Shown: positions 1 through 16,640, counted from the stretch's first letter. The stretch is 64,000 nt of DNA from an uncultured Candidatus Saccharibacteria bacterium (GCA_964350985.1 CAYGLK010000001.1:158636-222635), one strand, 5' to 3'. Numbers and translations: made by a program. Notes: generated by a model from the sequence alone, not told the origin.

Positions 1-3000
1 TGTGAGGTACTGGCCATTTCAAACGCAACGCTCCCAACTACTCGTTGCCAGGATCCAACATTTTCGCAGGTTGTGATCTTAGTGCCATATTCAAGCCGCA
101 GTCTTGTATCAGTTGCTGTAATACTTCCATCATTTGAAATAGCCACACGAAGTCTTTGAGTACTCTTTTGAAATACTCCATTTACTTGGGTATTCTCAAT
201 ACCATTAGTGGCAGACGAGGCTGTCGCTTCATTTCCATTGTCATTTCGCCAGTGATAATTAGCCTGAGTTAGTGAAGGGGCTGCAATACTTGTAGTACCG
301 TCGATTTCTATAGTACTTCCTGGTCCAATAGAACCAGTACTAGCAACAACATCAAGAGAAGGGTTATTAATAGAAAGGTCAATTGTTTGACCGTCGGTAA
401 CTGATTTGTTGACTGAATATACCGTGTAAACACAGAGTGCCGAAGTATCTGTAATAGCTACTGATTGGTTAAATGTAGCAGTACCATCTGCCCCTGAGAA
501 GCTACTGGCAGTACTACCATACTGGCTTTCAGTTCCAGAGTAAGACTCACTAACACAGTTGTAGGGAGCAGAGGTGTCGAGTTCATAAAATAATTTAACT
601 GAAGTTAAATTAGTAGCGTCAACGGTTCCTGATTCTGTCAGAGTGATCTCAGTAATGTCTCGACTACCTGAATTGTCTGTAATAGAAAATACTCCACCAC
701 TGTAATTATCGACTGAGTCACTGTTGACTGTTGCGATTTGGGTACCGCTAGCACCAACAGATACATCAGAACTGAGCGTGGCTTCTGGATACTCCGAATA
801 ATTTTTTAAGGGGGTTCCCGCATCAGTTACTCTAAAACAATAGCCAACACCTTCAGTAGCATTGTTTGTAGCTTGGATTGAATACTCAAGTTCGACAAAC
901 TGACTTAAAGAAGTAGTCTCAATAAAATTTCCATTTGATTGAAAACTGATAACAGCTACTTCTTCAGCAGCGTGACCACGATCAGCTCCAAGTCCGTCTT
1001 CATCAGTTGATAGGGTAACAGCTGAAGCTGTCGGCGCTGTATCGGTATCTACTTGCGCAAATCCGCCATCAGCCCCGAGTTGGGTTAAGGCCTGTACGAT
1101 GATTACGGATGGGGTAGTGGAAAAAGCTGAACTGTAATTAATAGTAATTGGCGTATTAGAAACATTGGCGCTCCCTGAGGTAATAAAGTCGAAGTTAATT
1201 GAGTTGTTGGTTCCGTTGCTCTCTTCAAAAACAATAAAATCAATATCTTCAGCGGCGGTGTGCCCATCTGCGTCCCAGTTGTCATTTAAGAAGGCGGTTA
1301 GTCCGGAGCTGGTGGGAGGATTATCGACATTGGTTCCGTCATAGACTGTAGCGAAAGTCCAGTCTGAGTCGTTAGTGGTCACAACAGAAGCAAGGACAGT
1401 TGGATTAGTAAAGGTGCTTGGATAGGTCACAGCTGCTCCGCCAGGATTATCTGGTAGGGCGCGCCCGGCTGAAACACTGGTGCTGGTGGTACTAGCAAAA
1501 ACTTTAGTTCCAGTCCCACCATCATCTATAGTCCATTCTCCAGCCTCAATAACTAAATAATCCACCGTTGAAGTACCAGCAGAAAGAGAGCCGTCAAAGT
1601 TATCAACCAACACATCAAAAGCAGAAGTTGTTTTGTTGGAAATACGAACCGTTCTTTGGGTTGAGGTTCTAGGGTATCTAACAGAAGCAACAACTATTGG
1701 GTCAGTATAAGTATTATCTAAATTAATCGTTGTTGTAATTCCATTTGTAACTGATACGTTTTTAAATTCTGCTAAATTTGGAAATACGTCACTGTCCAGA
1801 ATAATTGAGCCAGTTTGCGCGGAAGTGTCACGTACTCCTCCGTTGGGGCTTAAAAACAAATCTGCTCCGTCAGTTACTCCGCCTGAAGCAACAGAAATGT
1901 TTGTGGTATTACTTGCTTCTGTTAGGAAGCTTGAGTCAAACATATTCCAGTCACTACCACCTGTCCCGACTTCAGTCCAGCCTGTAGCTAACGAACAGGT
2001 GGTGACTTTTTCAGAGTACTCGAGACGATAGTTATTGGATTCTGACTCAGAACCAAGAGCTGCTAGTCCGATTCGTAAGCGTTGCGGTGTTGAGGTTGAG
2101 AAAGAAAGTCCTGGTGTGTTTTCAGTCCCCCCGGTTGCGGAAGTAGCACCGACTTCACTACCATCATCATTGCGCCAATGATATCCAGTTTGTGTTATAG
2201 CAGCATCAACAATGGTGGTCAGCGAATTACCAACTGAACCAGCTGGATTTACAGTACCTCCAGCAGTAACCACAACATCAGACGATGGGTTTCCAATCTC
2301 AACGTTTATAGTTTCGCCATTTTGGGCTGTTGCCAAAACATCTGCCAAGATGTATCCACAAAACGCTTGTGTCTGCGAAATAGATTCACTGCTGGTAAAA
2401 GTGATAGTTCCATCTGCTCCACTGAAGGTTGAGGTTGCACCAAACTGTGCTTCGCTGCCTCCGTATGATTCACTGGCACAGTTGTATGGAAGAGTGGTGT
2501 CTAAGTCGTAGTACAAACGTACATTCTCCAAGTTGTTCTCTGCATCAATTGTTCCGTTTTCAGTAAAGATTATGTTCGTAATATTTCGACCGCCTTGATT
2601 TTCGATGATTGCAAATTGTTCTCCTAGATACAAGTCATCGGCTGGAATTGTAGTTGTTAGTACTTGATCTCCTGAGACAGTGACATCGGTAGTTGCTTCT
2701 CCAATCAATGTAGAAATCTCTACGGCTTGCAAGGCAATACGATCGGCAATAAAGTTCGACACCGGAGTACCAGTTGTTTCATCTGATTGAATTAATTCAA
2801 CCACCTGACCAGCGGTCAGGTTAGGGAAGAGTGCACCACCAGAAGAACCACTAGTATAAGCATCTTCAGAACCTTCATCACCTCGGTTGTAGCTACCATG
2901 TCCTCCATAGTTTTGAACAGAGCCATCAATTCGCCAGTCAAGTTTGGGAACATCTCGACCAGTACCAGCACTTCTGCTGGTGTAGGCAGTAGACAAGAAG

Positions 3001-4214
3001 AGGTAGTTTCCGTCACTGGCGATTTCAATATTGTCGTTGTTGGTACTGGTAGAGTGGGTAAAATAACTTGAAGCAGTGCGAAGTTGCGAATTCCAAGTCA
3101 TCACACTTTGGGAGGTGGTTAGTGCCTGGTCACTAGAACTAGTCAAGGAAATTACTTCTGCTCCAGTAGGCAGAGCAACCATAGTCAAGGCAGTCTCACC
3201 GCCAACAATATTTGTTGCCCCTGCAGCTTGTCCAGCGTTTCTTACTTCCACATTGAAAGTTTGGTCACCCGCAGAACTTTTCTTAACTATCCCGACATAC
3301 TGCAAGGTTCCGTTTGTGGTTCCATTATCAAATCGCAAATAACTACTACTGCGTGTACCAACTACTTCTGTACCATCAAGAGTTAATCTCAGTTCGTAGT
3401 TTTGTCTTGGTCCACTGCCATCAGTAACGTTTAGCTTAACGTTGGCTGTGACTAAGAAAAGTTGTTCAGATCCGCCTTTTAGTGTTACGTCAGCGGCGGT
3501 TGGGGTAAATGCAAAAGACCCAGTGTCAACCTCGTCAGTAGTGTCCCAAGTAACATCAGTAAAACTTGAGTTAGCACTAATATCGCTACTGTTTGAAGCT
3601 TTGTGTATTCGTAAATAATCTAAGTCGTCATCAAGTTTCAGGACACTAACGCCGTTGCTGTTGGCTCTAATGGCTGTGCCGGCAGAAGGATTTGCATCAT
3701 CTCGTTCTAGCTCCACTCGTAAATTTTGATTGGTAGTCGCGTCAATTATGGCAGCTCCAGAGTTGTAGGCAGATAAATTATTCTCAGTATCACGGATGTA
3801 CCCAGTAGCCCAACCTGCTTCAATGGGAGTACCGTCAAGTGTTAGGTATGAAGAAATCGAACGACGATTTGTGCCCCCGGTAGATCCTTCTTCGGTGTAG
3901 GTGTTATAAAGCACTAAGTATTTTCCACCATCAGTGAGGGCAATGTCGGCATCATTTACATTGAGTACTATGTTGGTACTCTCAGACAAGGTGGTGTCCC
4001 ATTTGACGTCAAAGCCAGTTCCGGCTACGACCTCGCCACCAGCCGCTTGACGAAAAACTGAAAAATCTCCAGCTACCGCTCCAACTTTGGCTGCGTTAAA
4101 TAAACCATGTTCTAACAACAAAAACGCATCTGTAAATACCATTGAAAAAATAAGAACAAATGAACAGTATGTACGCAGCCAATTAGCTGAGTTTTTTCCC
4201 GTCACCTTTCGCAT
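1..4214 (-). CDS. Giant secreted repeat-containing surface protein, putative adhesin-like. Partial: the N-terminal ~1400 aa are in the window and the C-terminus lies beyond the window start.
   Basis: Own translation of the minus strand from the ATG near 4214 gives MRKVTGKNSANWLRTYCSFVLIFSMVF..., a signal/anchor-like hydrophobic N-terminus, followed by a very long open frame rich in T/S/G/N/D. There are internal ~640-aa repeats, e.g. YHWRNDDGSE.. near 2180 and YHWRNDNGNE.. near 255, and LYYDLDTTLPYNCASESYGGSEAQFG vs LFYELDTSAPYNCVSESYSGTEAQFG. The ORF track shows no complete ORF over 1-4.2 kb, consistent with one open frame running off the edge. Confidence 0.6.
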   Translation of the reverse strand, partial: MRKVTGKNSANWLRTYCSFVLIFSMVFTDAFLLLEHGLFNAAKVGAVAGDFSVFRQAAGGEVVAGTGFDVKWDTTLSESTNIVLNVNDADIALTDGGKYLVLYNTYTEEGSTGGTNRRSISSYLTLDGTPIEAGWATGYIRDTENNLSAYNSGAAIIDATTNQNLRVELERDDANPSAGTAIRANSNGVSVLKLDDDLDYLRIHKASNSSDISANSSFTDVTWDTTDEVDTGSFAFTPTAADVTLKGGSEQLFLVTANVKLNVTDGSGPRQNYELRLTLDGTEVVGTRSSSYLRFDNGTTNGTLQYVGIVKKSSAGDQTFNVEVRNAGQAAGATNIVGGETALTMVALPTGAEVISLTSSSDQALTTSQSVMTWNSQLRTASSYFTHSTSTNNDNIEIASDGNYLFLSTAYTSRSAGTGRDVPKLDWRIDGSVQNYGGHGSYNRGDEGSEDAYTSGSSGGALFPNLTAGQVVELIQSDETTGTPVSNFIADRIALQAVEISTLIGEATTDVTVSGDQVLTTTIPADDLYLGEQFAIIENQGGRNITNIIFTENGTIDAENNLENVRLYYDLDTTLPYNCASESYGGSEAQFGATSTFSGADGTITFTSSESISQTQAFCGYILADVLATAQNGETINVEIGNPSSDVVVTAGGTVNPAGSVGNSLTTIVDAAITQTGYHWRNDDGSEVGATSATGGTENTPGLSFSTSTPQRLRIGLAALGSESESNNYRLEYSEKVTTCSLATGWTEVGTGGSDWNMFDSSFLTEASNTTNISVASGGVTDGADLFLSPNGGVRDTSAQTGSIILDSDVFPNLAEFKNVSVTNGITTTINLDNTYTDPIVVASVRYPRTSTQRTVRISNKTTSAFDVLVDNFDGSLSAGTSTVDYLVIEAGEWTIDDGGTGTKVFASTTSTSVSAGRALPDNPGGAAVTYPSTFTNPTVLASVVTTNDSDWTFATVYDGTNVDNPPTSSGLTAFLNDNWDADGHTAAEDIDFIVFEESNGTNNSINFDFITSGSANVSNTPITINYSSAFSTTPSVIIVQALTQLGADGGFAQVDTDTAPTASAVTLSTDEDGLGADRGHAAEEVAVISFQSNGNFIETTSLSQFVELEYSIQATNNATEGVGYCFRVTDAGTPLKNYSEYPEATLSSDVSVGASGTQIATVNSDSVDNYSGGVFSITDNSGSRDITEITLTESGTVDATNLTSVKLFYELDTSAPYNCVSESYSGTESQYGSTASSFSGADGTATFNQSVAITDTSALCVYTVYSVNKSVTDGQTIDLSINNPSLDVVASTGSIGPGSTIEIDGTTSIAAPSLTQANYHWRNDNGNEATASSATNGIENTQVNGVFQKSTQRLRVAISNDGSITATDTRLRLEYGTKITTCENVGSWQRVVGSVAFEMASTS

Positions 4215-4564
4215 GGGCCTACCTATTATAGTAAAAAATGAGGCGAATGCGAAAAATAGCCTTATTTAGAGCCTTCTTTCTGTGTATAACTTACTTGACG
4301 GTGAGAGGTCCTTTTATACAAAAGCCCATAGAGGGATTGGTAAAAAATATGTAAAAATTGGTCACTTATGCCCGTTTAGTACACAAGTAAACCCCAAGTT
4401 ATCCCAAGAGTTATACAGCTGTCTCCACAGGATTTTCCACAGAGTAATCCACATTTTTTTATTTGAGTTTTTATGGAAAATTATTATTAATTCCTCTATT
4501 TATTTGTACCCTATGAACAGCTTTTGTATAATTAGCAAATTAGTATTGCTGTAACTCAAAATAT
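4215..4564. promoter_or_regulatory. AT-rich divergent intergenic region between the giant surface protein gene (minus) and the 4565 gene (plus); presumably holds both promoters.
   Basis: A 350-bp non-coding AT-rich stretch between divergently oriented starts. The only ORF here (4282..4554) is low-complexity and probably spurious. Confidence 0.3.
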
Positions 4565-7309: not shown

Positions 7310-7324
7310 AATAAAAAGTATACC

Positions 7325-7420
7325 AGAGGTTCGAACCTTCGATAAAGGTATAAAAAAGAACCGCCACACCTTGAGGAAGGTGGGACGGCTATGTCCTTTC
7401 TTCCACTAGTGTGGTGGCCT
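7325..7420 (+). repeat. Family-1 intergenic repeat, copy A: tRNA-3'-end-like palindrome GGTTCGAACC + TATAAAAAAG + long GC hairpin. It reads as a Rho-independent terminator on the minus strand, downstream of the 7423..7881 gene.
   Basis: Shares gaggttcgaaccttcgataaaggtataaaaaagaaccgcc with copies D and F. The hairpin arms ccgccacac/gtgtggtgg and the inner arms aggaca/tgtcct are compensatory relative to copy B. A-run 7351-7357 is the U-tract on the minus strand. Confidence 0.55.
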
Positions 7421-7422
7421 TG

Positions 7423-7881
7423 TTATCCGCGTTGCAATTTTTGCGAGACCCTCATTTCGGTCAATCGACCAAGCCCCTCGTCGTCAGGCACAAGCAAAGG
7501 GTCCTCTACTTTCCGTCGCCCACGTTCGTCGGTGCTGATGTACGTGAGGATCCTAAAATCTATCCTCCACAAGCCATAAGTCACTGGCATTTCGGCACCG
7601 AGAGGATCGGTAACCTTTCTGGGGAAGCGGTGTGTCATCTCTCGAAAAAGGCCACTGCCGATATCTTTGCGGAATTGATTATCTGTCGGATTTGACCAAA
7701 AGTGGCTGGTGTCGATAACGATTCGATTGGGACAATTCTTGTCCATAAAGTCGTAACTGGCAGTATTGCCAGTGGTTAGACTCTCAAGTAACGCCTCTGT
7801 AAACTCTTTTTTTCTTATATGTACAGAGACTGTCACCATAAAAAATCTACGATTGCGTAGGGCGAGAGAAGGCTCGTCCAT
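7423..7881 (-). CDS. hypothetical protein (152 aa), relatively GC-rich
   Basis: Track ORF; no family recognised. The overlapping plus-strand ORFs 7391..7579 and 7411..7695 are judged spurious. Confidence 0.5.
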   Translation of the reverse strand: MDEPSLALRNRRFFMVTVSVHIRKKEFTEALLESLTTGNTASYDFMDKNCPNRIVIDTSHFWSNPTDNQFRKDIGSGLFREMTHRFPRKVTDPLGAEMPVTYGLWRIDFRILTYISTDERGRRKVEDPLLVPDDEGLGRLTEMRVSQKLQRG

Positions 7882-8057
7882 AATGTACTCCCTAGTGTTG
7901 GTTAAAGAACCGATTTATTTTAATCCTTGCGGGCATAAAGCTGCAAAGAATCTAAAGTTAATATCGCAAAAAAGAAACTCATCGTCAATACACAAATCAA
8001 GCCTTTCATGTTCAAAAACCTCCATGTTGTTAATATTGCATGGATTTGTTTGTAGGT

Positions 8058-8082
8058 TAGGGAAGTTCGAACTTTCTGCATG
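8058..8082 (+). repeat. Family-1 repeat, copy C (core only: GGGAAGTTCGAACTTT)
   Basis: ggttagggaagttcgaactttctgcatgcag contains the perfect palindrome AAGTTCGAACTT shared with D, E and F. Confidence 0.5.
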
Positions 8083-8110
8083 CAGAATGACAGCGTTCTG
8101 ATGTAGAAGT

Positions 8111-8527
8111 CTAGTTCAAATATGAACGTAACTTTTCAGTAATATTTTTCACCTCTGATATATACGGCTCTACACTTCTTTCGGCAGTAGCTGCGTTCAT
8201 AATTGGACGTACAGATTCAATTTTTCTACCAAATTTCTCCATCCAATCATGTCGGGGAAAAATCCAAACATGGAACCCGTGTTCAGTGTCTTCATTTTGG
8301 AAAATGTATACATCTTTGATATTCAAGACATGCTCCATTGCGACTCGAACTTTCTTCAAAATATCTGCTAGCTCGCGGAGTTCTTCGTCTGAAAAATCAG
8401 AAAATGAGCGTTTTGTTTTATCATTTGCTCCAATTACAAAAAAAGCTTCAATTGGAGTTTCCCAATCCTGGCCCACATTGAATGTTTCTGTCTTGAGAAT
8501 TGTACTGTCTGGGAATAATACTTTCAT
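8111..8527 (-). CDS. HIT-like superfamily protein (degenerate histidine-triad region)
   Basis: ...FSDEELRELADILKKVRVAMEHVL...TEHGFHVWIFPRH resembles the HIT-family layout (..PHLHVHVIPR), but the triad is not canonical. Confidence 0.4.
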   Translation of the reverse strand: MKVLFPDSTILKTETFNVGQDWETPIEAFFVIGANDKTKRSFSDFSDEELRELADILKKVRVAMEHVLNIKDVYIFQNEDTEHGFHVWIFPRHDWMEKFGRKIESVRPIMNAATAERSVEPYISEVKNITEKLRSYLN

Positions 8528-8581
8528 AAGATAAGTATATCAGTCCCAGACAAATAAATATCTTGCTAAAAATAGAGTGGT

Positions 8582-9079
8582 CTATAGTGGAATTTCACAC
8601 TCAATGTCGCCTTGGTCTATCATTAAACGCAAAACATCAGAATTGACTACAATCTCTTGTTCTGTTGGGACAGATTCATCCGAGTAAACTTCATAATGAT
8701 GGTTACCTTCACAAAAATTTGCAGGATCTAGTACATAAATATATCCTTCACCATTAAGCTGAATATTGTTAGTTTCACTCCAGATCCTAGCCTGTCCGTT
8801 TCGCTCGGATATCCGCAAACCCATTCGTTGTTCAGGATCAAGTGGTTTTGCAAGAGATAGAACTAGAGGGAGTAAAAAGTCTCCTGGAGCTCCATAAACC
8901 ACTTTCATATGTTTGTTGTGTTTTGATGAGTGGTCAAAAGCTAGATCCGGATCTAGTTTATTTAATCCTTTCTTTTTTGAACCGTGAAAATTTTTTCCTT
9001 CAGCTTTAGCTCGTTCAAGTAAATTCAATGATTTTATAGGATCAAATTTTTCAGGAGTATTGAATTTTTCTTTATTCAT
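8582..9079 (-). CDS. hypothetical protein (165 aa)
   Basis: Track ORF; no family recognised. Confidence 0.5.
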   Translation of the reverse strand: MNKEKFNTPEKFDPIKSLNLLERAKAEGKNFHGSKKKGLNKLDPDLAFDHSSKHNKHMKVVYGAPGDFLLPLVLSLAKPLDPEQRMGLRISERNGQARIWSETNNIQLNGEGYIYVLDPANFCEGNHHYEVYSDESVPTEQEIVVNSDVLRLMIDQGDIECEIPL

Positions 9080-9099
9080 AACAAAATTATAGCAGAAGT

Positions 9100-9160
9100 A
9101 AAAACCACACTTGCGTGTGGCCTAACTTTTATATGCTCCACATAGTGGACGAGATTAGAA
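9100..9160 (+). repeat. Family-2 modular repeat, copy J: type-b hairpin module + GCTCC-N6-TGGACGAG. Lies in a divergent promoter region.
   Basis: accacacttgcgtgtggcctaacttttatatgctcc is identical to the module in copy I (15650-15690), followed by acatagtggacgagattagaaac. Confidence 0.55.
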
Positions 9161-9194
9161 ACAGTATATCTAGTGTATAATTAAGCTCACAGAT

Positions 9195-9980
9195 ATGAAG
9201 ATTTACTCCTGGAACGTCTTATTCAAGAATAAGAAGCTCGACAACGTTCTTGCTTTCATTGAAAAGCTAGATTTTGATATTCTCACTCTCCAAGAAGTCT
9301 CTGAAGAGTTGTTGGAAAGACTAAAACAGCTTCCTTATAGTCTTGCATCCAGCACAGATAAGGTTCGTATAGATGAATTTGGAAAAAATTTCACTGATTC
9401 GCTCGTGATCCTTTCTCGATATTCTATAGTCCAGCAAGAATCTATTTTATTTCCAGCGGAGTGGTATCAAGAACCTGTCGCATGGCAGTCGAAGCTAGCG
9501 AGAAAATTATTGAGTTGGAGGCATTCGTATAAAAGCAGAAGCGGTCTCCGTGTCGAAGTATTTTTACCAGATTCTAAACGTATCCAAATAGTCTGTGCTC
9601 ATCTCGCAATCGTATTTGCTACCCCTGAAACTCGTCAGATGGAGTTTGATTTTTTGATGCAGAAGCGGAATAATGAACTACCCGTTATCTTTTGTGGAGA
9701 TTTTAATATCTTGGAACTACCTCACATAACTCTTCTGAATTGGCTATCTGGTGGAAAGTTAAGTGATTGGATGTTCTGGTGGGGAGAGCGACAAACCTTC
9801 GAGAATAAATTTCAGGAATATTTTTTGCAAAATCCTCTCAAAGGGATGATGACCCATCCCATCGCCATATCTCAGATTGATCACATTCTTATTCCAAAAG
9901 ATTTCCAAGTCATCTCGAAAAAAGTCTTGCGTAGCAAGTTCGGTTCCGATCATAATCCGGTGATGGTGGAAGTGGACTAG
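9195..9980 (+). CDS. endonuclease/exonuclease/phosphatase (EEP) family protein
   Basis: N-terminus MKIYSWNVL..DILTLQEV and C-terminus GSDHNPVMVEV are the classic EEP (PF03372) terminal motifs. Confidence 0.8.
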   Translation: MKIYSWNVLFKNKKLDNVLAFIEKLDFDILTLQEVSEELLERLKQLPYSLASSTDKVRIDEFGKNFTDSLVILSRYSIVQQESILFPAEWYQEPVAWQSKLARKLLSWRHSYKSRSGLRVEVFLPDSKRIQIVCAHLAIVFATPETRQMEFDFLMQKRNNELPVIFCGDFNILELPHITLLNWLSGGKLSDWMFWWGERQTFENKFQEYFLQNPLKGMMTHPIAISQIDHILIPKDFQVISKKVLRSKFGSDHNPVMVEVD

Positions 9981-10030
9981 AGAGCAAAAAAGAAACACAA
10001 TAGCCAGAAAGAATGCTTTTCATGTTGGAT

Positions 10031-10112
10031 GCTCCGCTGGGTGAGGGAAGTTCGAACTTTAGTATAAAAAGAAACCGCTCGTGAAGACGCGGTGTCTTAC
10101 GAACGGTTTTGC
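10031..10112 (+). repeat. Family-1 repeat, copy D: GCTCCGCTGGGTGAGGGAAGTTCGAACTTTAGTATAAAAAG + hairpin. Acts as a bidirectional terminator between the convergent genes 9195..9980 (+) and 10120..10389 (-).
   Basis: Motif conserved in copies E and F. Hairpin aaaccg..gaagacgcggtgtcttc..cggtttt is followed by TTTT on the plus strand and preceded by an A-run, which gives a U-tract on the minus strand. Confidence 0.55.
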
Positions 10113-10119
10113 AGACTCT

Positions 10120-10389
10120 TTAGAACATCTGATACGGCACTGCATTTCCTGGAATTCGAGTGAGAATCATTCCGCAGCCATATCGACCTTTAATGGTCGG
10201 CACAACAATGCGAGAACTGATCTGTCTCTTTCCCAGTCCGATGACTTGGTAGCTGGCTGCAGATACTGGGAAAACGGTTGCTATTCCCAGGATTACCAGC
10301 CCTCCTTTTGGAAGTCGTTCTTGCGCAACCGCTCCTGATTGGTACCACTTGCGCCAAAAACGGCGATCAGTTTTTTTGCTCTGGTTCAT
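10120..10389 (-). CDS. hypothetical small protein (89 aa) in a GC-rich segment
   Basis: Track ORF. An overlapping plus-strand ORF of similar size (10081..10338) exists, so the strand assignment is uncertain. Confidence 0.35.
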   Translation of the reverse strand: MNQSKKTDRRFWRKWYQSGAVAQERLPKGGLVILGIATVFPVSAASYQVIGLGKRQISSRIVVPTIKGRYGCGMILTRIPGNAVPYQMF

Positions 10390-10451
10390 GACACATTCTC
10401 CCTTTGGACAAATTTAACAATAGCACAATAAATGTATTATGTCAATATTTG

Positions 10452-10553
10452 TCCCGCTGAGTCAGGGGAAATGACGACAAGTTTTGTATAAAAAACCGCC
10501 GCACCGTGGGGAAGTCAGGACAGTTGTCCTTTCTTCCACTAGGTGTGGCGGCA
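10452..10553 (+). repeat. Family-1 repeat, copy B (degenerate 5' part + TATAAAAAA + long hairpin). A minus-strand terminator for the 10626..11225 gene.
   Basis: gctgagtcaggggaaatgacgacaagttttgtataaaaaaccgccgcacc...gtggggaagtcaggacagttgtcctttcttccactaggtgtggcggc. The hairpin is homologous to copy A with compensatory base changes. Confidence 0.5.
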
Positions 10554-10625
10554 TGTGTCAGGAACTGCCGGACAGCCCCAGATAGAGCATTTTGTCATTA
10601 GCAGCTGCGGTACATCATCTCACAA

Positions 10626-11225
10626 CTAATCCTCGTCGCCGATTTCGGATTTGATGTTGATCGTAATGACGTGCGGGGCAGTCTGCTGTCCTGAAAGGAA
10701 CAAGAGCCAAGAAAGACCGACGAGCTGTTGCTTGGTGTGTTCAACCCCCAGCAAATCAAGAGCAAGCGACAGTTGATCAGGTGAGTAATTAACCTCACCA
10801 TTTCTGATTATCCCTGCGATCGCCGGGAAGAGAGGACCGTTTTTGAAGCCGTCAACATCGCCCTGATTCAAGTGATGCCGCAACTGTTCCTCCCTGGGTA
10901 CAGCAGCGTATTCCGCTGCCGCATCTTGAGCACCACCTCGCTCATGAGTGATCTCTTCACTGTACCAAGGAGGTACGTCTCCGTCGCAGTCGACCAAGAC
11001 ATTGTCTTTATGGCTCCAAATGAATGGATTACATCTCACGTCCGGCGCGGAAATCGGAAGTTCAGTCGATGGAAATGACAAAAAGACTTCACCTTGGTCG
11101 CCGACACGGAGTACTGTGACTTGAAACATCGTTGCTTCGTCTGCACTCGGATCTGGCTTGAAAGGTACAATCAGCAGATCACCTGCTGAAAGTGAGGTGA
11201 ACAACTTTTTTGGGCTCGTTGGCAT
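10626..11225 (-). CDS. hypothetical protein (199 aa), GC-rich relative to its surroundings
   Basis: Track ORF; no family recognised. Confidence 0.5.
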   Translation of the reverse strand: MPTSPKKLFTSLSAGDLLIVPFKPDPSADEATMFQVTVLRVGDQGEVFLSFPSTELPISAPDVRCNPFIWSHKDNVLVDCDGDVPPWYSEEITHERGGAQDAAAEYAAVPREEQLRHHLNQGDVDGFKNGPLFPAIAGIIRNGEVNYSPDQLSLALDLLGVEHTKQQLVGLSWLLFLSGQQTAPHVITINIKSEIGDED

Positions 11226-11344
11226 CAGATTTTCCTCTAGTTGTGGCTGAGATGGCTTTGATTACGTGCACCATAAGGAGCACTTTGTTTTTATACTATA
11301 ATTTATATCTAATGTCAATTTAACATTGTAATGTCTAAACACAT

Positions 11345-11480
11345 CTGTCACTTTCTCCATTGGAGCACAGAAAAATCCCCAAGAGGGGATTTGTTCAATG
11401 CTCCCTCAACTGGACGCATTCAGAACCTCAAACTGGAGGCGAATACAACAAGAATTGGAAATGAGTGGAATTTTAGGACA
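11345..11480 (+). repeat. Family-2 modular repeat, copy H: partial 5' module + type-a hairpin module + GCTCC-N6-TGGACG..TTCAGAAC + tail AAGAATTGGA..GAGTGGAATTTT
   Basis: gtcactttctccattggagcacagaaaaatccccaagaggggatttgttcaatgctcc is identical to the module in copy G. Its tail matches copy I (agaattgga...gagtgggatttt). Confidence 0.55.
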
Positions 11481-11588
11481 GTTTGAAAATGTTCAACTTC
11501 AGAACTCGTAATTGGAGGAAAGCTCAAATGTAATAAAATTCACTGAATTAATTCTGTAATCTATAGTGGCAAATGCTATTATTTAACT

Positions 11589-12278
11589 ATGAAACTAGAG
11601 CAACTATTACCCAAGAAAGAAACAGCGGAAAAACTTTCGGTAGATTTAGAAACAGTTCTGGATGATCTTGAGGGATTGGATGCAGAAGATTTAATAAATG
11701 CACCCCGTGAATATATTCTCAAAGGAAAAATACTAGCTAGACAGCTCAAACAGATTAGAACACTCGGGGTAGAATTTACAGTCTCTGGAGAAAAGGATCG
11801 TTTAGTTTTATCTACAGGTTCAGTCGGTTGTACTGAGCCTGACCCCAGAGCGTATATACAAGCTCTGATAGACGATAATAAAGAGTTCCCATCGGTTACA
11901 GAAAGAATTCAAACATCTCCACTCAGTATGCATTCACACGACTCTGAGATTGGGGTTGTTCCAAGTATTCCAGATATCATTGCCCTGAGAAACGCTGTAA
12001 ATTCTGCAAGTCTACTTTTTACCAGCGAGGGAATACTGTCATACTCTTGGAATAAAGATTTTGATGTGGAGCAAAAGTTCTTGTCTTTTTTAGAGATAAA
12101 ATACCCAGTTGAAAATATTTTTGACGTCGATACGTTTTATGAACTAGACAAACCAAGACAGATAGAACTCCTTTCTGACTTTTACAATAATTTTGACGTA
12201 CTCATCAAAAAAGCGACTTGGGATGAAGAAGAAAAGTGCCAAGCTATATTAGATCAATATTTTAGTCAGAATAGCTAA
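11589..12278 (+). CDS. hypothetical protein (229 aa)
   Basis: Track ORF; no family recognised. Confidence 0.55.
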   Translation: MKLEQLLPKKETAEKLSVDLETVLDDLEGLDAEDLINAPREYILKGKILARQLKQIRTLGVEFTVSGEKDRLVLSTGSVGCTEPDPRAYIQALIDDNKEFPSVTERIQTSPLSMHSHDSEIGVVPSIPDIIALRNAVNSASLLFTSEGILSYSWNKDFDVEQKFLSFLEIKYPVENIFDVDTFYELDKPRQIELLSDFYNNFDVLIKKATWDEEEKCQAILDQYFSQNS

Positions 12279-12305
12279 AGTAACACTTTACAATTCTTTA
12301 CAAAA

Positions 12306-12345
12306 GCTCCGCTGGGTGAGGGATGTTCGAACTTTAGTGTAAAAT
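12306..12345 (+). repeat. Family-1 repeat, copy E (core without the hairpin)
   Basis: gctccgctgggtgagggatgttcgaactttagtgtaaaatt, almost identical to copy D. Confidence 0.55.
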
Positions 12346-12449
12346 TAGAAAGCAATACATGAAGAATTGGGGTTTATTCGCACTTCAGAATCTGTTTGTA
12401 TACAAGCCACACTAGTCTGATATACTTTAATCATAAATAACATTAAATT

Positions 12450-13388
12450 ATGGAAGAATTTTCAAGATCATCTAAAGAAATGAAATCTAATTATGAGAGG
12501 GCTATGGTCAATTATGGTGATGAAGACTTATCAAAAGATGGAACAATGGAGAAGGACCAAGTCTTTCCAACTGCTTTTATCACATCACGTTGTTTTGCGG
12601 AGCAGACTGATATTCCAAATGCCAAAGAGTTATACGCCTCATTCTGCGATCAAATGGGTTTCGTGAAAGGAGAGAATGAACCAGATCAAATAGATACACC
12701 ACATTTTATGGAACTCAGGTATCTGTCTACTGAAAAAGTATTAAAAGAGGCGGTTAAAAATGAAGGAGTTACTCAGGTTGTTGAATTAGCTTCTGGTTTC
12801 ACTCCACACTCAGTAAATTTACTTACTTCAGTAGAGGGAATTAATAATTACATTGAAAATGACTTTGCTGTTAATCTTGATGTGAAAAAGAAAGCCGTAA
12901 ATGATTTTGTAGGAGGTATTCCCGTAGCCTTTGTTCCTGGAAATGCAGTGGAACAGGAAACTTGGGAAAAAATCGAAGCTCAGTTAACAGATGAACCAGT
13001 GGCAATATTTTGTGAGGGTTTAATGATGTATCTCTCTCGCGATCAGCAAATAGAGTTTTTTAATAACATCAAAGAAGTACTTAAGAAAAAGGGTGGTTTC
13101 TTTATGCATGAAGATATTCTTAAATACCATCCAGAACTAAAAGAAAATCCAAGATTTGCCAGGATAACAAACAAATTGAAAGCTATAAGTAGTAATACTG
13201 CTTTAGACGAAGCCTTTACTCAAGAAGGAGTGACTCAATTCTATGAAAGTCTCGGTTTTGTTGTTGACCGTGTTCCAGAAGATGTCCCGTTAAGTATTGA
13301 TAGCTACCCTGAACACACTCGAGAGAACGCAAGAGAATTACAGACAGCTGGCTTTCAGATGTGGAAACTAAGTTTGCCTAAGGAGTAA
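12450..13388 (+). CDS. class I SAM-dependent O-methyltransferase, leucine-carboxyl-methyltransferase (LCM/TcmP)-like
   Basis: VVELASGFTPHS resembles LCM motif I (VVNLGAGLDTR), and PVAIFCEGLMMYLSRDQQIEFFNNIKEVLKKGGFFMHE resembles the LCM (EGLLMYL) region. Confidence 0.5.
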   Translation: MEEFSRSSKEMKSNYERAMVNYGDEDLSKDGTMEKDQVFPTAFITSRCFAEQTDIPNAKELYASFCDQMGFVKGENEPDQIDTPHFMELRYLSTEKVLKEAVKNEGVTQVVELASGFTPHSVNLLTSVEGINNYIENDFAVNLDVKKKAVNDFVGGIPVAFVPGNAVEQETWEKIEAQLTDEPVAIFCEGLMMYLSRDQQIEFFNNIKEVLKKKGGFFMHEDILKYHPELKENPRFARITNKLKAISSNTALDEAFTQEGVTQFYESLGFVVDRVPEDVPLSIDSYPEHTRENARELQTAGFQMWKLSLPKE

Positions 13389-14090
13389 TTCAGCTATTGC
13401 CTCAGGGTTGGAAAACATAGCCTCATGATCTGCATCAATTGTCATTATTTCTGCAGCGTTTGGTAAAAGAGAAATTATTTCATCAAAGGTTTCTTTTTGT
13501 AATGAGATATCATTTTGACACTTTACATAAATAACTGGAACTTTTGTTTGCTGGAAAGAATCAAGTACAACTATCTCCTCGTAGGGTTTAATTGGTTGAG
13601 GTTCAAGTTTAGATAAGAAGTCATTTAATTCATCAGAGTCCGGGCTGCTGTTAAATAAACCTTGTCTTATTTTCTCTATGTTTGGAGGAATTGATTTGTC
13701 AGCACGATTGGACGCAATTTGTCTGTATTTTTCTTGAACTTCGGAAGGAAGGAGTGAGGAAAAGGCTTTATTTTTTAAGATAACCGAAGTGAGAAAAAAC
13801 GCCTTGTTTATCTTTTCTGGTATTTTTTCAATTACTTTAGAAATAGTTATTCCACCTAGGCTATGACTTACTAATACAATATCATTCAATTTATTTGAAT
13901 TTATATAATCTATTACATAGTTTATATAATCATCTATACAAACATCTTCTTTTTTAATTGAGTCATTCAATCCGTTTCCTGGTAAATCCAGAGTATGGCA
14001 AATGAATTTGTCATTTGGTATCAAATTTATTACCTCATTCCAACACCATCCAGCATGATACGCACCGTGGACGAAAAGTATATTTTGCAT
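13368..14090 (-). CDS. alpha/beta-hydrolase, SABP2/methylesterase-like
   Basis: N-terminus ILFVHGAYHAGWCW is the SABP2/MES-family signature. GxSxG nucleophile elbow VSHSLGG. Catalytic His region DADHEAMFSNPE. The 3' end overlaps the 12450..13388 gene convergently by about 20 nt. Confidence 0.75.
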   Translation of the reverse strand: MQNILFVHGAYHAGWCWNEVINLIPNDKFICHTLDLPGNGLNDSIKKEDVCIDDYINYVIDYINSNKLNDIVLVSHSLGGITISKVIEKIPEKINKAFFLTSVILKNKAFSSLLPSEVQEKYRQIASNRADKSIPPNIEKIRQGLFNSSPDSDELNDFLSKLEPQPIKPYEEIVVLDSFQQTKVPVIYVKCQNDISLQKETFDEIISLLPNAAEIMTIDADHEAMFSNPEAIAELLLRQT

Positions 14091-14167
14091 AAATATAATT
14101 ATATCAAAAGTTTTATGTTCTGTTTTAGTAACAAAAAATAACCTTGTTTTGCAAGGTTATTTTTGTT

Positions 14168-14250
14168 GCTCCGTCATGGGATGAAGTTCGAACTTTAATA
14201 TAAAAAGACCGCCCAAAGGAAGTCTTCCCTTAAGCGGTTGATTGTGAGAA
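14168..14250 (+). repeat. Family-1 repeat, copy F: GCTCCGTCATGGGATGAAGTTCGAACTTTAATATAAAAAG + hairpin. A minus-strand terminator for the 40-aa peptide gene.
   Basis: Hairpin accgc..aggaag tc ttccct..gcggt preceded by an A-run on the plus strand, which is a U-tract on the minus strand. Confidence 0.5.
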
Positions 14251-14253
14251 GAG

Positions 14254-14376
14254 CTAGCCATCATCGTCGTCGTCATTCCACAGAAGAGAAAGAGCGACAC
14301 CAATAGCCACTCCGACAGTGATATTGTCCATTGCAACCCCGATGGCTATGCCTACAGCTAATCCTAAGGGATTCAT
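14254..14376 (-). CDS. small hydrophobic glycine-zipper membrane peptide (40 aa) with a poly-Asp C-terminal tail
   Basis: Own translation: MNPLGLAVGIAIGVAMDNITVGVAIGVALSLLWNDDDDDG. A GGAGG Shine-Dalgarno sits 5 nt upstream of the ATG, and a TTGACA-17-TATATT promoter lies about 35-60 nt upstream. The peptide is below the track's 60-aa cutoff. Confidence 0.45.
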   Translation of the reverse strand: MNPLGLAVGIAIGVAMDNITVGVAIGVALSLLWNDDDDDG

Positions 14377-14409: not shown

Positions 14410-14452
14410 AATATATCATATTATTGTCATATTGTCAATTTGCTCCGGCAGT
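14410..14452 (-). promoter_or_regulatory. sigma70-like promoter (TTGACAATA-N-TATATT) for the 40-aa peptide gene, abutting a degenerate tRNA-Asn 3'-end-like segment (GCTCCGGCAGTAAG)
   Basis: Minus-strand reading: TTGACA (14438-14433), 17-nt spacer, TATATT. The same arrangement (tRNA-3'-like GCTCCGGC.GTA.G next to TTGACAATA) recurs at 16143-16203. Confidence 0.4.
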
Positions 14453-14602
14453 AAGCAAAGCTTTCTATCCTACACTCACAAGAACTAAGTAAAAGTGAAC
14501 TTTGACTTAGCTTGTTCGTTTGAATAGTAGGAATTTCTCTTGTTACACAAGCAGTACACCTTTTGGATTTTCTTTTCGTAAACTCAAGAAAATACTCAAA
14601 AG

Positions 14603-14716
14603 CTTTTCGAATCCTAACGAAAGTGACTTATGTCACTTTCTCCGCCGAAGCACAGAAAAATCCCCAAGAGGGGATTTGTTCAATGCTCCGCGTGCTGGAC
14701 GAGTTTCGAACCTTGG
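14603..14716 (+). repeat. Family-2 modular repeat, copy G, full length: TTTCGAATCCTAACGAA + hairpin AAAGTGAC/GTCACTTT + CTCCGCCGAAGCAC + type-a hairpin AAATCCCC/GGGGATTT + GCTCC-N6-TGGACGAG-TTTCGAACC
   Basis: The 5' two-thirds align with copy I with compensatory hairpin changes (AAAGTGAC..GTCACTTT vs AACGTGAC..GTCACGTT). The central hairpin is identical to copy H. Confidence 0.55.
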
Positions 14717-14771
14717 ATTGGTTAAATATTGAAAACGATTTGAGGTATTTTGATATTGCTCTAACGAAATG

Positions 14772-14800
14772 AGACCCTGCGGTGTATTGCAGGGTCTCGT
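14772..14800 (-). terminator. stem-loop terminator candidate downstream of the 14824..15405 gene
   Basis: gagaccctgc-ggtgtattg-cagggtctc is a 10-bp perfect stem right after the gene's stop, followed by a T-rich stretch on the minus strand (atttcgtt). Confidence 0.4.
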
Positions 14801-14823
14801 GTCGGTCTTACCGACGGGGTTAT

Positions 14824-15405
14824 TCAGGCATATGGACGGCGCAGTGGGTTTTGTCCCAACGGAGCACGAAGGTGTTCAGGGACTTCATTACCGAACAGCT
14901 CGCGATACTCCATTGGAGCAAGGCCGTAACGCCGCACAATGTCAGCGAAGACCCGCAGACCTACCTCGCTGTCGATGTGATACGACGTGACGAAAGGCTT
15001 GCCTTCGCTGGAGGGATCATCGACGAACCTGTTGCCTTGAGACTCTAGCAAGTTGACGAGGCTTTCGTCCGTCGGGCGCTCTGAATTGGCATACAAGACA
15101 TGGCCTTGGTCATCAAGACGCGTGATCCACTCTTCGGGGGGCAGGCAACCGCAGTGGCCAGCGACCCGAATGTCGGTTTTGCCAACAGGGTCGGCGTAGA
15201 GTGCCCGTGCGATTTCGAGTGGTACGCGACAGTTGACGACCCAGTAGCACCAGCCACGCTTGAAGGTCATATCGCCTAGCTTGCCGATGACCGAGTAGGG
15301 CACTTCTGTATTACCCCTCTTGATGTCCACGGCGTCGATGTAACTGCGAGCAAGCTCGCGTCGGATATCTTCGTCGCAGGTTGCGACACCAGCCAGGTTC
15401 TTCAT
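14824..15405 (-). CDS. hypothetical protein (193 aa), markedly GC-rich; probably recently acquired
   Basis: Longest ORF in the segment. The plus-strand ORFs 14769..14990 and 14782..15048 overlap it and are judged spurious. Confidence 0.55.
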   Translation of the reverse strand: MKNLAGVATCDEDIRRELARSYIDAVDIKRGNTEVPYSVIGKLGDMTFKRGWCYWVVNCRVPLEIARALYADPVGKTDIRVAGHCGCLPPEEWITRLDDQGHVLYANSERPTDESLVNLLESQGNRFVDDPSSEGKPFVTSYHIDSEVGLRVFADIVRRYGLAPMEYRELFGNEVPEHLRAPLGQNPLRRPYA

Positions 15406-15587
15406 GGTGCAGTCCTCTCTGTGGTGAACGGAAAATCAAACCAAATAATTCACTATTTATAGTGTATTGTCAATAGTGCTCCGCAGGTGGGAATTTCGGT
15501 CACGAGTTACTAAGCTTTTTATTTCACTTAGCTCATAAAAATCTAAGTACTCTCGACCCCGGCTCATTCGCCTACGGCATCATTCCG

Positions 15588-15780
15588 CCTTTCGAATCCT
15601 AACGAACGTGACGTTTAGTCACGTTCTCCGCCGGAGCATATAAAAGCAAAGACCACACTTGCGTGTGGCCTAACTTTTATATGCTCCCTAAGCTGGACGG
15701 GTTCAGAACTCTTGGTGCAGGAATTTAGACGAGCAAATTGGTCACTAATTCAGAAAGAATTGGATCGGAGTGGGATTTTG
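15588..15780 (+). repeat. Family-2 modular repeat, copy I, full length with the type-b hairpin module and a long tail
   Basis: tttcgaatcctaacgaacgtgacgtttagtcacgttctccgccggagcata + taaaagcaaagaccacacttgcgtgtggcctaacttttata + tgctccctaagctggacgggttcagaac + tail agaattggatcggagtgggatttt. Confidence 0.55.
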
Positions 15781-15879
15781 TATTTTTATCAAAGTCAGGT
15801 ACTTCAGAACTATATTGTATAAAAGAAAGAGGCCCGTTGATGTTATCGCAGGGCCCCGTGACGGCAATACCGTCGGGCG

Positions 15880-16101
15880 TCAGAAGCTGATGATCTCGCC
15901 CTGCGGACCCCAAACCATTCCCATGGTCATGGTCATCGTCATGCCATGACTGGTGTGACTGGTCGATGTCAGAGCGGCGGCCGCACCATTGAAGCCTGCT
16001 TCAGTGAGGCGACGACGGATCTCGTCATGAGACCCTCCCTTGCACTTCTTGGCAAGATCGGTCGCTTCGTCCTTGGTGAGTTTGTGAAAGGGCTTATCGG
16101 C
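15880..16101 (-). CDS. small protein (73 aa from MADKPF..). The N-terminus resembles a Rho_N/HeH-like helical DNA/RNA-binding fold, and the C-terminus carries an MTMTMTMGM tract.
   Basis: A GGAGA Shine-Dalgarno sits 6 nt upstream of the ATG at 16101, and a TTGACA-17-TATAGT promoter lies upstream. The track's longer start (16137) falls inside the promoter palindrome. The LTKDEATDLAKK...EIRRRLTEAGF layout is only weakly family-like. Confidence 0.45.
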   Translation of the reverse strand, partial: ADKPFHKLTKDEATDLAKKCKGGSHDEIRRRLTEAGFNGAAAALTSTSHTSHGMTMTMTMGMVWGPQGEIISF

Positions 16102-16131
16102 CATTCGTGTTCTCCGAGTTAATGGGTGAAA

Positions 16132-16171
16132 TGACAATACCTACTATATCATATATAGTAGGTATTGTCAA
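16132..16171 (-). promoter_or_regulatory. 39-bp near-perfect palindrome containing the sigma70-like promoter TTGACA-17-TATAGT for the 15880..16101 gene; a possible operator
   Basis: tgacaatacctactatat-ca-tatatagtaggtattgtca: arms of about 17 bp are perfectly complementary. The -35 and -10 elements read off the minus strand. Confidence 0.45.
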
Positions 16172-16177
16172 TATAAA

Positions 16178-16203
16178 GCTCCGGCGGTAGGATTCGAACC
16201 TAC
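16178..16203 (-). repeat. Perfect 26-nt direct repeat of the tRNA-Asn 3' end (T-arm + acceptor 3' strand), att-site-like
   Basis: gctccggcggtaggattcgaacctac is identical to 16309-16334 inside and abutting the tRNA, 131 bp away, in the same orientation. Confidence 0.8.
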
Positions 16204-16292: not shown

Positions 16293-16309
16293 GGGGAATC
16301 ATTTTTGGG

Positions 16310-16381
16310 CTCCGGCGGTAGGATTCGAACCTACGACCAACTCGTTAACAGCGAGCTGCTCTACCGCTGAGCTACGCCGGA
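16310..16381 (-). tRNA. tRNA-Asn (anticodon GTT), 72 nt; CCA not encoded
   Basis: Manual cloverleaf: TCCGGCG-TA-GCTC-AGCGGTA-GAGC-A-GCTCG-CTGTTAA-CGAGT-TGGTC-GTAGG-TTCGAAT-CCTAC-CGCCGGA-G. It has a 7-bp acceptor stem, a D-loop with GG, a TTCGAAT T-loop and anticodon GTT. Confidence 0.88.
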
Positions 16382-16501
16382 GCCCAAAAATTATTCATTA
16401 TTTAAATTTTAACAGCTCACCTTCTTACAGAAGCTGTTCAGGTTGTCGCCATTGTCATGGCTGGCAACCTCTTGCGAAAGCCTACAAGGCTTTCTCACTC
16501 C

Positions 16502-16520
16502 ACCGCTCCGCTACGCCGGA
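16502..16520 (-). repeat. Degenerate partial copy of the tRNA-Asn 5' half (acceptor 5' strand + D-arm), located upstream of the intact gene
   Basis: caccgctccgctacgccgga vs the tRNA's taccgctgagctacgccgga: about 17/20 identical. Confidence 0.45.
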
Positions 16521-16601
16521 AAATGCTCATGTTTAGCTATTCTTTAGCTGAACGTCACCATTGTACAGAAAAGTAATGATTATTCAACTATTACTGTAAT
16601 C

Positions 16602-16640
16602 CACAGGTGAGGGAATCAGTAAAACGTAGTATAATGAAAT
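16602..16640 (+). repeat. Degenerate family-1-like segment carrying a perfect TATAAT about 20 nt upstream of the glutaredoxin-like gene; a probable -10 promoter element
   Basis: cacaggtgagggaatcagtaaaacgtagtataatgaaa vs family-1 cgctgggtgagggaagttcgaactttagtataaaaaga. Confidence 0.35.

Follow-up and report, generated by a model that had tools for sequence, protein, structure and literature searches.

Integrons have an IntI-type tyrosine recombinase with an attI site and a Pc promoter beside it, and arrays of attC sites that lack an integron integrase are known as CALINs (clusters of attC sites lacking integron-integrases). An attC site is built of inverted boxes (R''/L'' ... L'/R'), of which R' (GTTRRRY) lies at the cassette boundary, and integron cassettes are promoterless. 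Cis-mobilisable elements (CIMEs) are att-flanked, carry no recombination genes, form by accretion and are decay products of larger integrative and conjugative elements (ICEs) or integrative and mobilisable elements (IMEs). A tDNA genomic island has an intact tRNA gene at one end and, at the other, a displaced fragment identical to the 3' part of that gene, with an integrase gene inside the island (Islander, PMC4383910), and the tycheposon islands of Prochlorococcus combine tandem integrations with scattered partial tRNAs (bioRxiv 10.1101/2020.12.28.424599). The locus considered here lies in a 64,000-nucleotide stretch of DNA from an uncultured Candidatus Saccharibacteria bacterium (GCA_964350985.1, CAYGLK010000001.1:158636-222635; hereafter the window, along whose whole length all coordinates are counted), in which a repeat, Family-1, occurs in co-oriented copies, all of them between 7.3 and 16.7 kb. 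The locus fails the defining tests of tDNA islands and of integron/CALIN arrays alike, because no integrase is found in the island, most of the repeats are not tRNA fragments, the sites do not have attC architecture, and the cassettes have promoters of their own. It has a definite anatomy, co-oriented repeats, a grammar that is common to several genomes, and a sharp switch of homology at the motif GGAGC. On balance and with moderate confidence, Family-1 is read here as a composite cassette-end junction, made of a terminator and an attachment-type core, in a cassette array that is anchored at a tRNA-Asn gene.

The Family-1 core measures about 33-40 nucleotides (nt) and reads, on the minus strand, (A)AGTTCGAAC-N14-GGAGC(A), also given as AAGTTCGAAC-N14-GGAGC(A). 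The copies and the hairpins that adjoin them are as follows:

7312..7358, minus strand: copy A core, with the palindrome AGGTTCGAACCT at 7327-7338, then GTATAAAAAAG
7361..7417, minus strand: hairpin A with T-run, predicted terminator of gene 7423-7881; then UUCUUUUUUAUAC on the minus strand
8055..8075, minus strand: copy C core, with no terminator and no TATAAAAAG
10031..10071, minus strand: copy D core, the reference 41-mer
10072..10109, minus strand: hairpin D with T-run, predicted terminator of gene 10120-10389
10451..10495, minus strand: copy B core, degenerate, directly followed by the TTGACA promoter of gene 10120-10389 (minus strand)
10496..10551, minus strand: hairpin B with T-run, predicted terminator of gene 10626-11225, homologous to hairpin A
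12306..12344, minus strand: copy E core, no hairpin
14168..14207, minus strand: copy F core
14208..14238, minus strand: hairpin F with T-run, predicted terminator of the small gene 14254-14376
15790..15828 (approximate), minus strand: copy H, consisting of a T-run, ATAC and AGTTCTGAAGTAC and forming the left end of a long-form spacer whose other end is the core 15683-15710
15829..15874, minus strand: tandem hairpins of H, predicted to terminate gene 15880-16104, at whose 3' end they lie; homologues of the hairpins in the c2 cassette (see below)
16598..16636, plus strand: copy G, in the native glutaredoxin promoter region, a doubtful member

The 12-bp palindrome AAGTTCGAACTT, which an earlier sequence-only reading of this DNA had placed in the core of the repeat, was recovered without mismatch at three positions (8063, 10048 and 14184) and with a single one at 12323; these four matches in the window, at up to one mismatch, compare with 0.31 expected. 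The same reading had assigned a common 41-mer to copies D, E and F; this 41-mer is exact in D only, agrees at 37 of 39 positions in E, and can be aligned with F only by means of an indel (64% identity ungapped). Copy A, which had been called diverged, has a perfect 12-mer palindrome of its own that differs from AAGTTCGAACTT, and copy B is indeed degenerate, its palindrome being lost. Copies A, B, D and F are the only places in the 64 kb where TATAAAAAG precedes ACCGC. Copy H had been overlooked. The seventh copy of the earlier account, G (at about 16602), does show similarity to D (p about 0.0025-0.0075), but forms the native glutaredoxin promoter; since its CACAGGTGAG box and its -10 box are conserved in relatives without Family-1 (relatives being contigs coded by L and a number), it is not counted as a secure member. 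As regards dispersed intergenic repeats, similar to repetitive extragenic palindromic (REP) sequences or miniature inverted-repeat transposable elements (MITEs), which are scattered over whole genomes and bear terminal inverted repeats, the remaining 47 kb of the window contain no copy, and no inverted partners of the copies were found within the window.

The GC hairpins adjoin copies A, B, D and F as described earlier, and they lie at the 3' ends of minus-strand genes, 5, 73, 10 and 15 nt past the respective stop codons; the sequence GCGGU(y)yUUUUUAUAC comes after every one of them on the minus strand. Together with those of H, these hairpins with their T-runs do look like Rho-independent terminators of minus-strand genes, at which transcription would actually end: as in known terminators of this kind, a GC-rich stem-loop passes directly into a U-run past the stop codon. 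A stem-loop with a U-run within 0-2 nt is present at A, B, D, F and H, and was not found at C, E and G; a position just past a same-strand stop codon applies to A, B, D and F, and hairpin F was additionally flagged in a terminator scan. The minus-strand tails are UUCUUUUUU (A), UUUUUU (B), UUUCUUUUU (D) and CUUUUU (F), the U-runs after these four hairpins end in AUAC or AUAU, and the hairpins of H and of the c2 cassette fold like the others. Predicted folding energies on the minus strand are -31.7 (A), -34.5 (B), -23.2 (D) and -19.4 kcal/mol (F), with z-scores of -3.9 to -5.7, versus -36.2 (A), -18.1 (D) and -12.8 kcal/mol (F) on the plus strand, the minus strand being the more stable one in D and F. 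Terminators of the type GGCGGT-T(n)-ATAC recur in the relative L031. Hairpins A and B are homologous (18 identical interior bases), and the genes upstream of them are unrelated to each other. That the A/B hairpin travels with its gene was considered and rejected: homologues of 10626-11225 on GC-rich contigs have other terminators and no core, and 7423-7881 is an orphan.

The arms of hairpins A and B had been taken to differ by compensatory changes. The differences, in the outer arms, are two one-sided transitions at different pairs, none of them double-sided, and the affected positions are G-U pairs when read on the plus strand but A-C mismatches when read on the minus strand; because they are one-sided and weaken the minus-strand helix, the compensatory argument fails for A versus B. 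Real double-sided terminator changes were found only between the terminators of H and those of the c2 cassette, at 2 of 17 pairs (five sequences). Of the earlier view that the whole repeat serves as a terminator at module boundaries, the terminator-like hairpin with U-tract and the boundary position of the copies hold, but the Family-1 core and its palindrome sit beyond the U-run and outside the terminator.

The core is an entity separate from the terminator, which is supported by copies C and E, where the core is present and the hairpin absent, and by hairpins A and B, which are homologous although their genes are not. It lies between the U-run and the next promoter: it starts past the former and, if a minus-strand promoter comes next, ends ahead of its -35 box (by 2-5 nt in copy B). 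The core in this spacer would therefore not be transcribed if the terminator works. Moreover, Family-1 belongs as a subtype to a superfamily of cores, TTC(N)GAA-N14-GGAGC, and the same architecture and length recur in other repeat families of the island:

9135..9162, minus strand: sister core of the type GCTCC-N15-TTAGAA
11400..11427, minus strand: sister core, TTCTGAA-N14-GGAGC
14685..14712, minus strand: sister core that ends the c2 cassette, with the switch from cassette to native flank right after its GGAGC
15683..15710, minus strand: sister core

In these sister cores the 12-bp palindrome is reduced to GTTCGAAC or lost, and the distance to the terminator is 70-130 nt. Long-form spacers of 115-135 nt begin with AGTTCTGAAGTAC and end with the core, and the one at 11515-11400 of the window is about 85% alike (by eye) to that of the relative L044. 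Family-1, in which there is only one TTCGAA box, seems to be the short form.

The cores resemble the part of tRNA-Asn from the T-loop to the 3' end, which in the gene reads TTCGAAT-N9-GGAGC. The gene and the elements related to it are:

16306..16382, minus strand: tRNA-Asn(GUU) gene, the anchor of the array
16178..16203, minus strand: exact 26-nt copy of tRNA-Asn from the T-arm to the 3' end, directly followed by the TTGACA promoter of gene 15880-16104
16498..16520, minus strand: 23-nt 5' remnant of the original tRNA-Asn, at the native position
15478..15641, plus strand: RNA-X copy 1, a structured element mimicking tRNA-Asn, whose 5' end abuts the c2 promoter
14519..14653, plus strand: RNA-X copy 2, which may start at 14442

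Among the Family-1 copies, A is the best match to the T-arm of tRNA-Asn (AGG-TTCGAACCTTCGA versus AGGATTCGAACCTACGA; p=0.002 in one comparison and 0 of 400 shuffles in another), and D is similar to the tRNA 3' end as well (p=0.005). Copy D also matches the 5' end of RNA-X copy 1 (15478) and the sister core 14685, with 0 of 400 shuffles reaching the score in either comparison. All cores are co-oriented with the tRNA-Asn gene regardless of the strand of neighbouring genes. The core pattern was counted 29 times in 206 kb of loci, versus 1.95 times in shuffled sequence, and the 13 non-tRNA cores among these matches follow the orientation of the local tRNA-Asn wherever a contig carries that gene. 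In these 13 cores, 13-14 nt separate TTCGAAN from GGAGC, versus 9 nt in the tRNA; so constant a distance suggests that the TTC(N)GAA box and GGAGC are recognised by one and the same protein. The pattern GCTCC-N8-17-TTYNRAA has eight co-oriented matches between 10031 and 16309; in relatives L002-L029, the tRNA itself is its only match on this strand in the neighbourhood of the tRNA. A plain decayed tRNA fragment was rejected as a sufficient account of Family-1 because the extra 5 nt are conserved and the cores are conserved across genomes.

At the gathering threshold, the only match of Rfam 15 in the window is tRNA-Asn, and no match overlaps the repeats or hairpins at E-values up to 10. The strict pattern GAWGTTCGAACTTTARTRTAAAA has no match in genome, viral and metagenome collections; it is too strict, since its TATAAAA part is not conserved outside this genome. 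Family-1-type cores are present in L050, one of several related Paceibacterota contigs that follow the cassette grammar described below. Patterns for the A/B hairpin and for the RNA-X 3' end had no matches in viral scans, and the ten viral matches to GGTGAGGGAA-N8-13-TAGTRTAA were discarded, as all are unrelated coding sequences.

Fourteen junction sequences (including two RNA-X 5' ends, at 15478 and 14442), taken together with the tRNA, divide the region from 7.3 to 16.3 kb into 13 intervals, of which eight contain one gene, two contain two, and three contain none; the units of the array measure 0.3-1.9 kb and are mostly single-gene. Six cargo genes are GC-rich (0.48-0.57, versus about 0.40 for the genome): 7423-7881, 10120-10389, 10626-11225, 14254-14376, 14824-15405 and 15880-16104. 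Their cassettes follow one grammar, namely GGAGCA, 2-5 nt, a promoter of the form (A)TTGACA(A/T)(T/A)A-17-(-10), the gene, a GC hairpin, a T-run and a core. One of these cassettes, c2, is laid out as follows:

14685..15478, minus strand: c2 cassette, with promoter, gene 14824-15405, tandem hairpins, spacer and core

The cargo gene of c2 has many homologues. The contigs on which homologues of gene 10626-11225 were found all carry ordinary bacterial genes that do not look like those of the Candidate Phyla Radiation (CPR), which suggests that this gene was acquired from other bacteria. Gene 7423-7881 has no homologue among 5.8 billion protein clusters. No cargo gene of the island is common to the serine-recombinase elements or to the left flanks of the relatives.

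Comparison with relatives locates the boundary of the c2 cassette. The relative L031 (contigs L031-L038 are essentially identical to one another) carries a c2 homologue at the same hotspot. Positions 14685-15433 of the window are 89.6% identical to L031; for the adjoining Grx-YggU-HPF DNA the figure is 65%, and for the backbone proteins 54-81%. Within the cassette, the non-coding 3' module of 139 nt (terminators, spacer and core) is 95.7% identical and the coding part 88.3%, and the 140 nt beyond core 14685 are 48% identical. The core 14685-14712 itself is L031-like at all but one base through GCGGAGC, and then continues as the native tRNA-Asn flank type of the empty site in L029. Likewise, a Family-1-type core of L050, GGTTCGAACGTCATCTACCCAGCGGAGCA, is joined to the native flank type of L024; the second Family-1-type core of L050, AGGTTCGAACATCCCCTATCCAGTGGAGC, is identical to copy E at 25 of 29 positions and lies past the terminator and T-run of a c2 homologue. 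L042 and L044 have arrays of single-gene cassettes. The order of L042 is the tRNA-Asn 3' exon, a gene, an exact 24-nt tRNA fragment with TTGACA, a gene, and a 14685-type core with TTGACA preceding a c2 homologue. In L044, a short-form core is followed by a gene, a core with TTGACA, a c2 homologue, terminators, a long spacer and a core. Cores of the 14685 type were thus found in the window, L031 and L042.

The ancestral order of the locus, as seen in L024, L027 and L029 among the relatives fetched via the neighbouring HPF gene, is an RNA-X of about 135 nt, a bidirectional terminator, tRNA-Asn and the glutaredoxin promoter, with RNA-X convergent with tRNA-Asn and the terminator common to both. 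The 5' and 3' ends of RNA-X pair together, copy the T-stem and acceptor strand of tRNA-Asn, and co-vary with the local tRNA; double-sided changes are present at 16 of 27 predicted pairs (five sequences). Besides its two full copies, the window has one partial copy (11347-11374); elsewhere, RNA-X was found in L024 (1301-1438), L027 (9177-9309) and L029 (about 186-396), and as tandem copies in L031 (7570-7925) and L050 (235-553). It has no Rfam match at gathering or permissive thresholds in the window and the relatives, and its identification as a tmRNA or a Y-RNA-like RNA was dropped, as neither ARAGORN nor Rfam gives support. The present tRNA-Asn is displaced: the 23-nt remnant of the original lies 115 nt upstream, behind a hairpin-rich spacer (window 16383-16520).

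In four relatives (L002, L003, L022 and L023), large serine recombinase genes abut or overlap the 3' end of tRNA-Asn, and the site is therefore a hotspot in this lineage, the recombinase genes marking integrated elements at the same tRNA-Asn. The genes, at 3105-4718 in L002, at 3059-4684 in L003 and just left of the tRNA in L022 and L023, reach the 3' half of tRNA-Asn, stopping at it or running into it; the recombinases of L002 and L003 have Resolvase, Recombinase and Zn-ribbon domains. In several relatives, tRNA-Asn is split in the anticodon loop by 260-590 nt (L003, 4672-5261; L031, 7230-7490; L039; L042). The L003 insert holds an open reading frame (ORF) with a weak, below-threshold HNH match, and ARAGORN misses the split tRNA-Asn genes; these interruptions look like introns with a homing endonuclease.

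Taken together, the proposed mechanism would run as follows. The hairpin and T-run would end the cassette transcript, and the core would be the attachment (recombination) site, so that a cassette would be the unit [promoter - gene - terminator - core]. Enzyme-mediated, site-specific recombination would join cassettes to one of three targets, the 3' end of tRNA-Asn, the end of RNA-X that mimics the tRNA, or a further core. The crossover would be in or beside (C/G)GGAGC, since this motif is common to the tRNA end, the RNA-X end and all cores, and since the two switch points lie exactly there. With repeated insertions, older cassettes would come to lie farther and farther from the tRNA, separated by co-oriented cores, and the recombinase would act in trans; its gene could lie in another part of the genome or on the serine-recombinase elements visiting this tRNA. 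More tentatively, these Paceibacterota might carry an integron-like capture platform that is new to description, in which self-contained cassettes with a core of about 33 nt that mimics tRNA-Asn are exchanged by some recombinase at GGAGC, and of which RNA-X may be a part.

Several observations weigh against reading Family-1 as a cassette-end junction. No recombinase domain was detected in the island ORFs or in window ORFs of at least 150 aa (Pfam, 64 kb), and the serine recombinases of the relatives, used as tBLASTn queries, had no match in the window. No circular form, no population polymorphism of empty and occupied sites and no strain variant was seen, all exact-protein look-ups returning contigs of the same sample (ERR3534985), broken at the repeats, or identical strains. 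All comparative loci are short metagenome contigs, and the high conservation of the c2 3' module could result from constraint rather than from recent transfer. Further cassettes of L031 have the same terminator type without a recognisable core, and no minus-strand promoter follows copies D and E. The cores are 5 nt longer than the genuine tRNA segment, and once gap costs are made stricter, D and E match the tRNA only weakly (p about 0.12). As for the hairpins, A and B are more stable on the plus strand by 4.5-5 kcal/mol and have A-C mismatches on the minus strand.

Part of this evidence would also suit a history in which the cores are passive scars, i.e., decayed or rearranged fragments of tRNA-Asn and of RNA-X left by serial integration of ordinary, larger integrase-bearing elements, of which later deletion spared a few cargo genes only; a dedicated cassette system would then not exist, and the cores would have no present function. 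Such scars would account for the exact displaced tRNA fragment at 16178-16203 together with anticodon-arm and 5' remnants, for the serine recombinase elements at the same tRNA in four relatives, for the core of L044 at 538, which shares its following sequence with the recombinase-end junction of L022, and for the lack of an integrase in the window; tandem integrations with scattered partial tRNAs also have a precedent in Prochlorococcus islands (bioRxiv 10.1101/2020.12.28.424599). However, random decay would not yield a near-fixed spacing of 13-14 nt, nor near-identical core subtypes across genomes (the 14685 type in the window, L031 and L042, the Family-1 type in the window and L050). It also sits badly with six neat units, in which a promoter starts 2-5 nt past one core and a terminator abuts the next, and with the 95.7% identity of a non-coding c2 3' module, and passive scarring is therefore judged unlikely. 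The original proposal of the sequence-only reading, that palindrome, TATAAAAAG and hairpin form one terminator module under selection on RNA structure that is reused at gene ends, is less probable still. It draws on the five copies (A, B, D, F and H) that pair a core with a hairpin and U-run at minus-strand gene ends, on the recurrence of the GGCGGT-T(n)-ATAC type in L031 and on the two double-sided changes in the H and c2 terminators, but explains the hairpins only: the core lies past the U-run and would therefore be outside the terminated transcript, it occurs without a hairpin in C and E and 70-130 nt off the terminator in the sister cores, its orientation is constant even beside plus-strand genes, and the A/B differences are one-sided, with A-C mismatches on the minus strand.

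A further explanation, that the core is a plus-strand promoter with operator, appears very improbable. In this case, TATAAA would be the -10 box and GTGAGG a weak -35 box, the palindrome in the spacer would be a repressor or activator site, the copies would be related to copy G, and short hairpin RNAs antisense to the 3' ends of minus-strand genes would be produced. Indeed, the region of G is a genuine promoter and shares the GGTGAGGGAA...TAGTATAA layout, TAGTATAAAAAC forms the -10 region of a bona fide island promoter at 11287-11300, and for hairpins A and B the plus strand, with its G-U pairs, gives the more stable fold. However, no Family-1 copy passed a plus-strand sigma-70 scan (at least 9 of 12 matches, spacing 16-18 nt). 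A plus-strand gene lies downstream of G and possibly of E, whose gene has an extended -10 promoter of its own, and G is the only copy that combines a downstream plus-strand gene with a conserved -10 box. The Family-1-type cores of L050 and L044 have no TATAAA box, and in the sister cores the palindrome is reduced or lost. The cassette-end junction with an attachment-type core remains the favoured reading of Family-1.

Some further features were noted in the island and in the window around it. Several minus-strand island genes, with starts at 7309, 9079 and 14090, have a -10 box (in some cases an extended one, TGn) 7 nt before the ATG and no Shine-Dalgarno sequence, and look leaderless. At 16129-16174, a near-perfect 39-nt inverted repeat, a possible operator, overlaps the TTGACA...TATAGT promoter of gene 15880-16104. 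An ORF of more than 1421 aa (3-4265, minus strand) runs off the left end of the window, and two class II aminoacyl-tRNA synthetase genes of the Asp/Lys/Asn type lie at 40125-42011, where the gene is fused to a DUF2000 domain, and at 56392-57789.

The genomes of CPR/Patescibacteria are very small, and their gain of accessory genes is poorly understood. If the reading as cassette-end junctions is true, these bacteria would stockpile and swap single genes at one tRNA gene in a compact and orderly manner, with a cargo that includes foreign-looking GC-rich genes; the attachment sequence of the system would be short and defined, its crossover point precisely predicted (GGAGC) and its cassette design minimal. 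If it is wrong, the locus is still a clear integration hotspot at tRNA-Asn with unusually regular scars. In addition, it reveals RNA-X, a conserved, unannotated, structured element that mimics tRNA-Asn beside the tRNA. A literature search found no description of such arrays in Patescibacteria.

How far the locus resembles described systems differs between its parts. Measured by the definition used in Islander, the fragment at 16178-16203 is a displaced copy (26 of 26 positions identical), and the Family-1 cores are distantly similar only (5 nt longer; p=0.005-0.12, depending on gap costs); no integrase gene was found among the island ORFs, and such genes are present in L002 and L003. As in elements that integrate in tandem at tRNA genes, there is a tRNA anchor, an exact displaced 3' fragment, and co-oriented repeats resembling partial tRNAs between blocks of cargo, newer insertions would push older ones outward, and relatives carry integrase-bearing elements at the same tRNA. 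In contrast to these elements, the units here are tiny and free of integrase and replication genes, the repeats are for the most part a conserved variant that is 5 nt longer than the tRNA segment, rather than tRNA fragments, the GC-rich units are complete promoter-gene-terminator units fitted exactly between repeats, and a second conserved target, RNA-X, lies beside the tRNA. With CIMEs, the locus shares att-flanked segments that lack an integrase of their own and would need one in trans; CIMEs, however, are not regular single-gene arrays with a conserved grammar. An attC reading of the cores was rejected directly from the sequence, as the boundary motif is GGAGC, GTTCGAA fails the RRR of R', and the TTC(N)GAA boxes of the long spacers are direct, not inverted. 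Integron and CALIN arrays are, together with tandem integrations at tRNA genes, the closest known systems: mostly single-gene cassettes stand beside a fixed platform, co-oriented sites mark the cassette 3' ends, the site subtypes differ between cassettes, and the same cassette gene occurs with different neighbours across genomes. Unlike integrons, the window has no detectable IntI gene, the cassettes come with TTGACA-17-(-10) promoters and terminators of their own, the sites are similar to a tRNA 3' end, and a tRNA gene is the platform.

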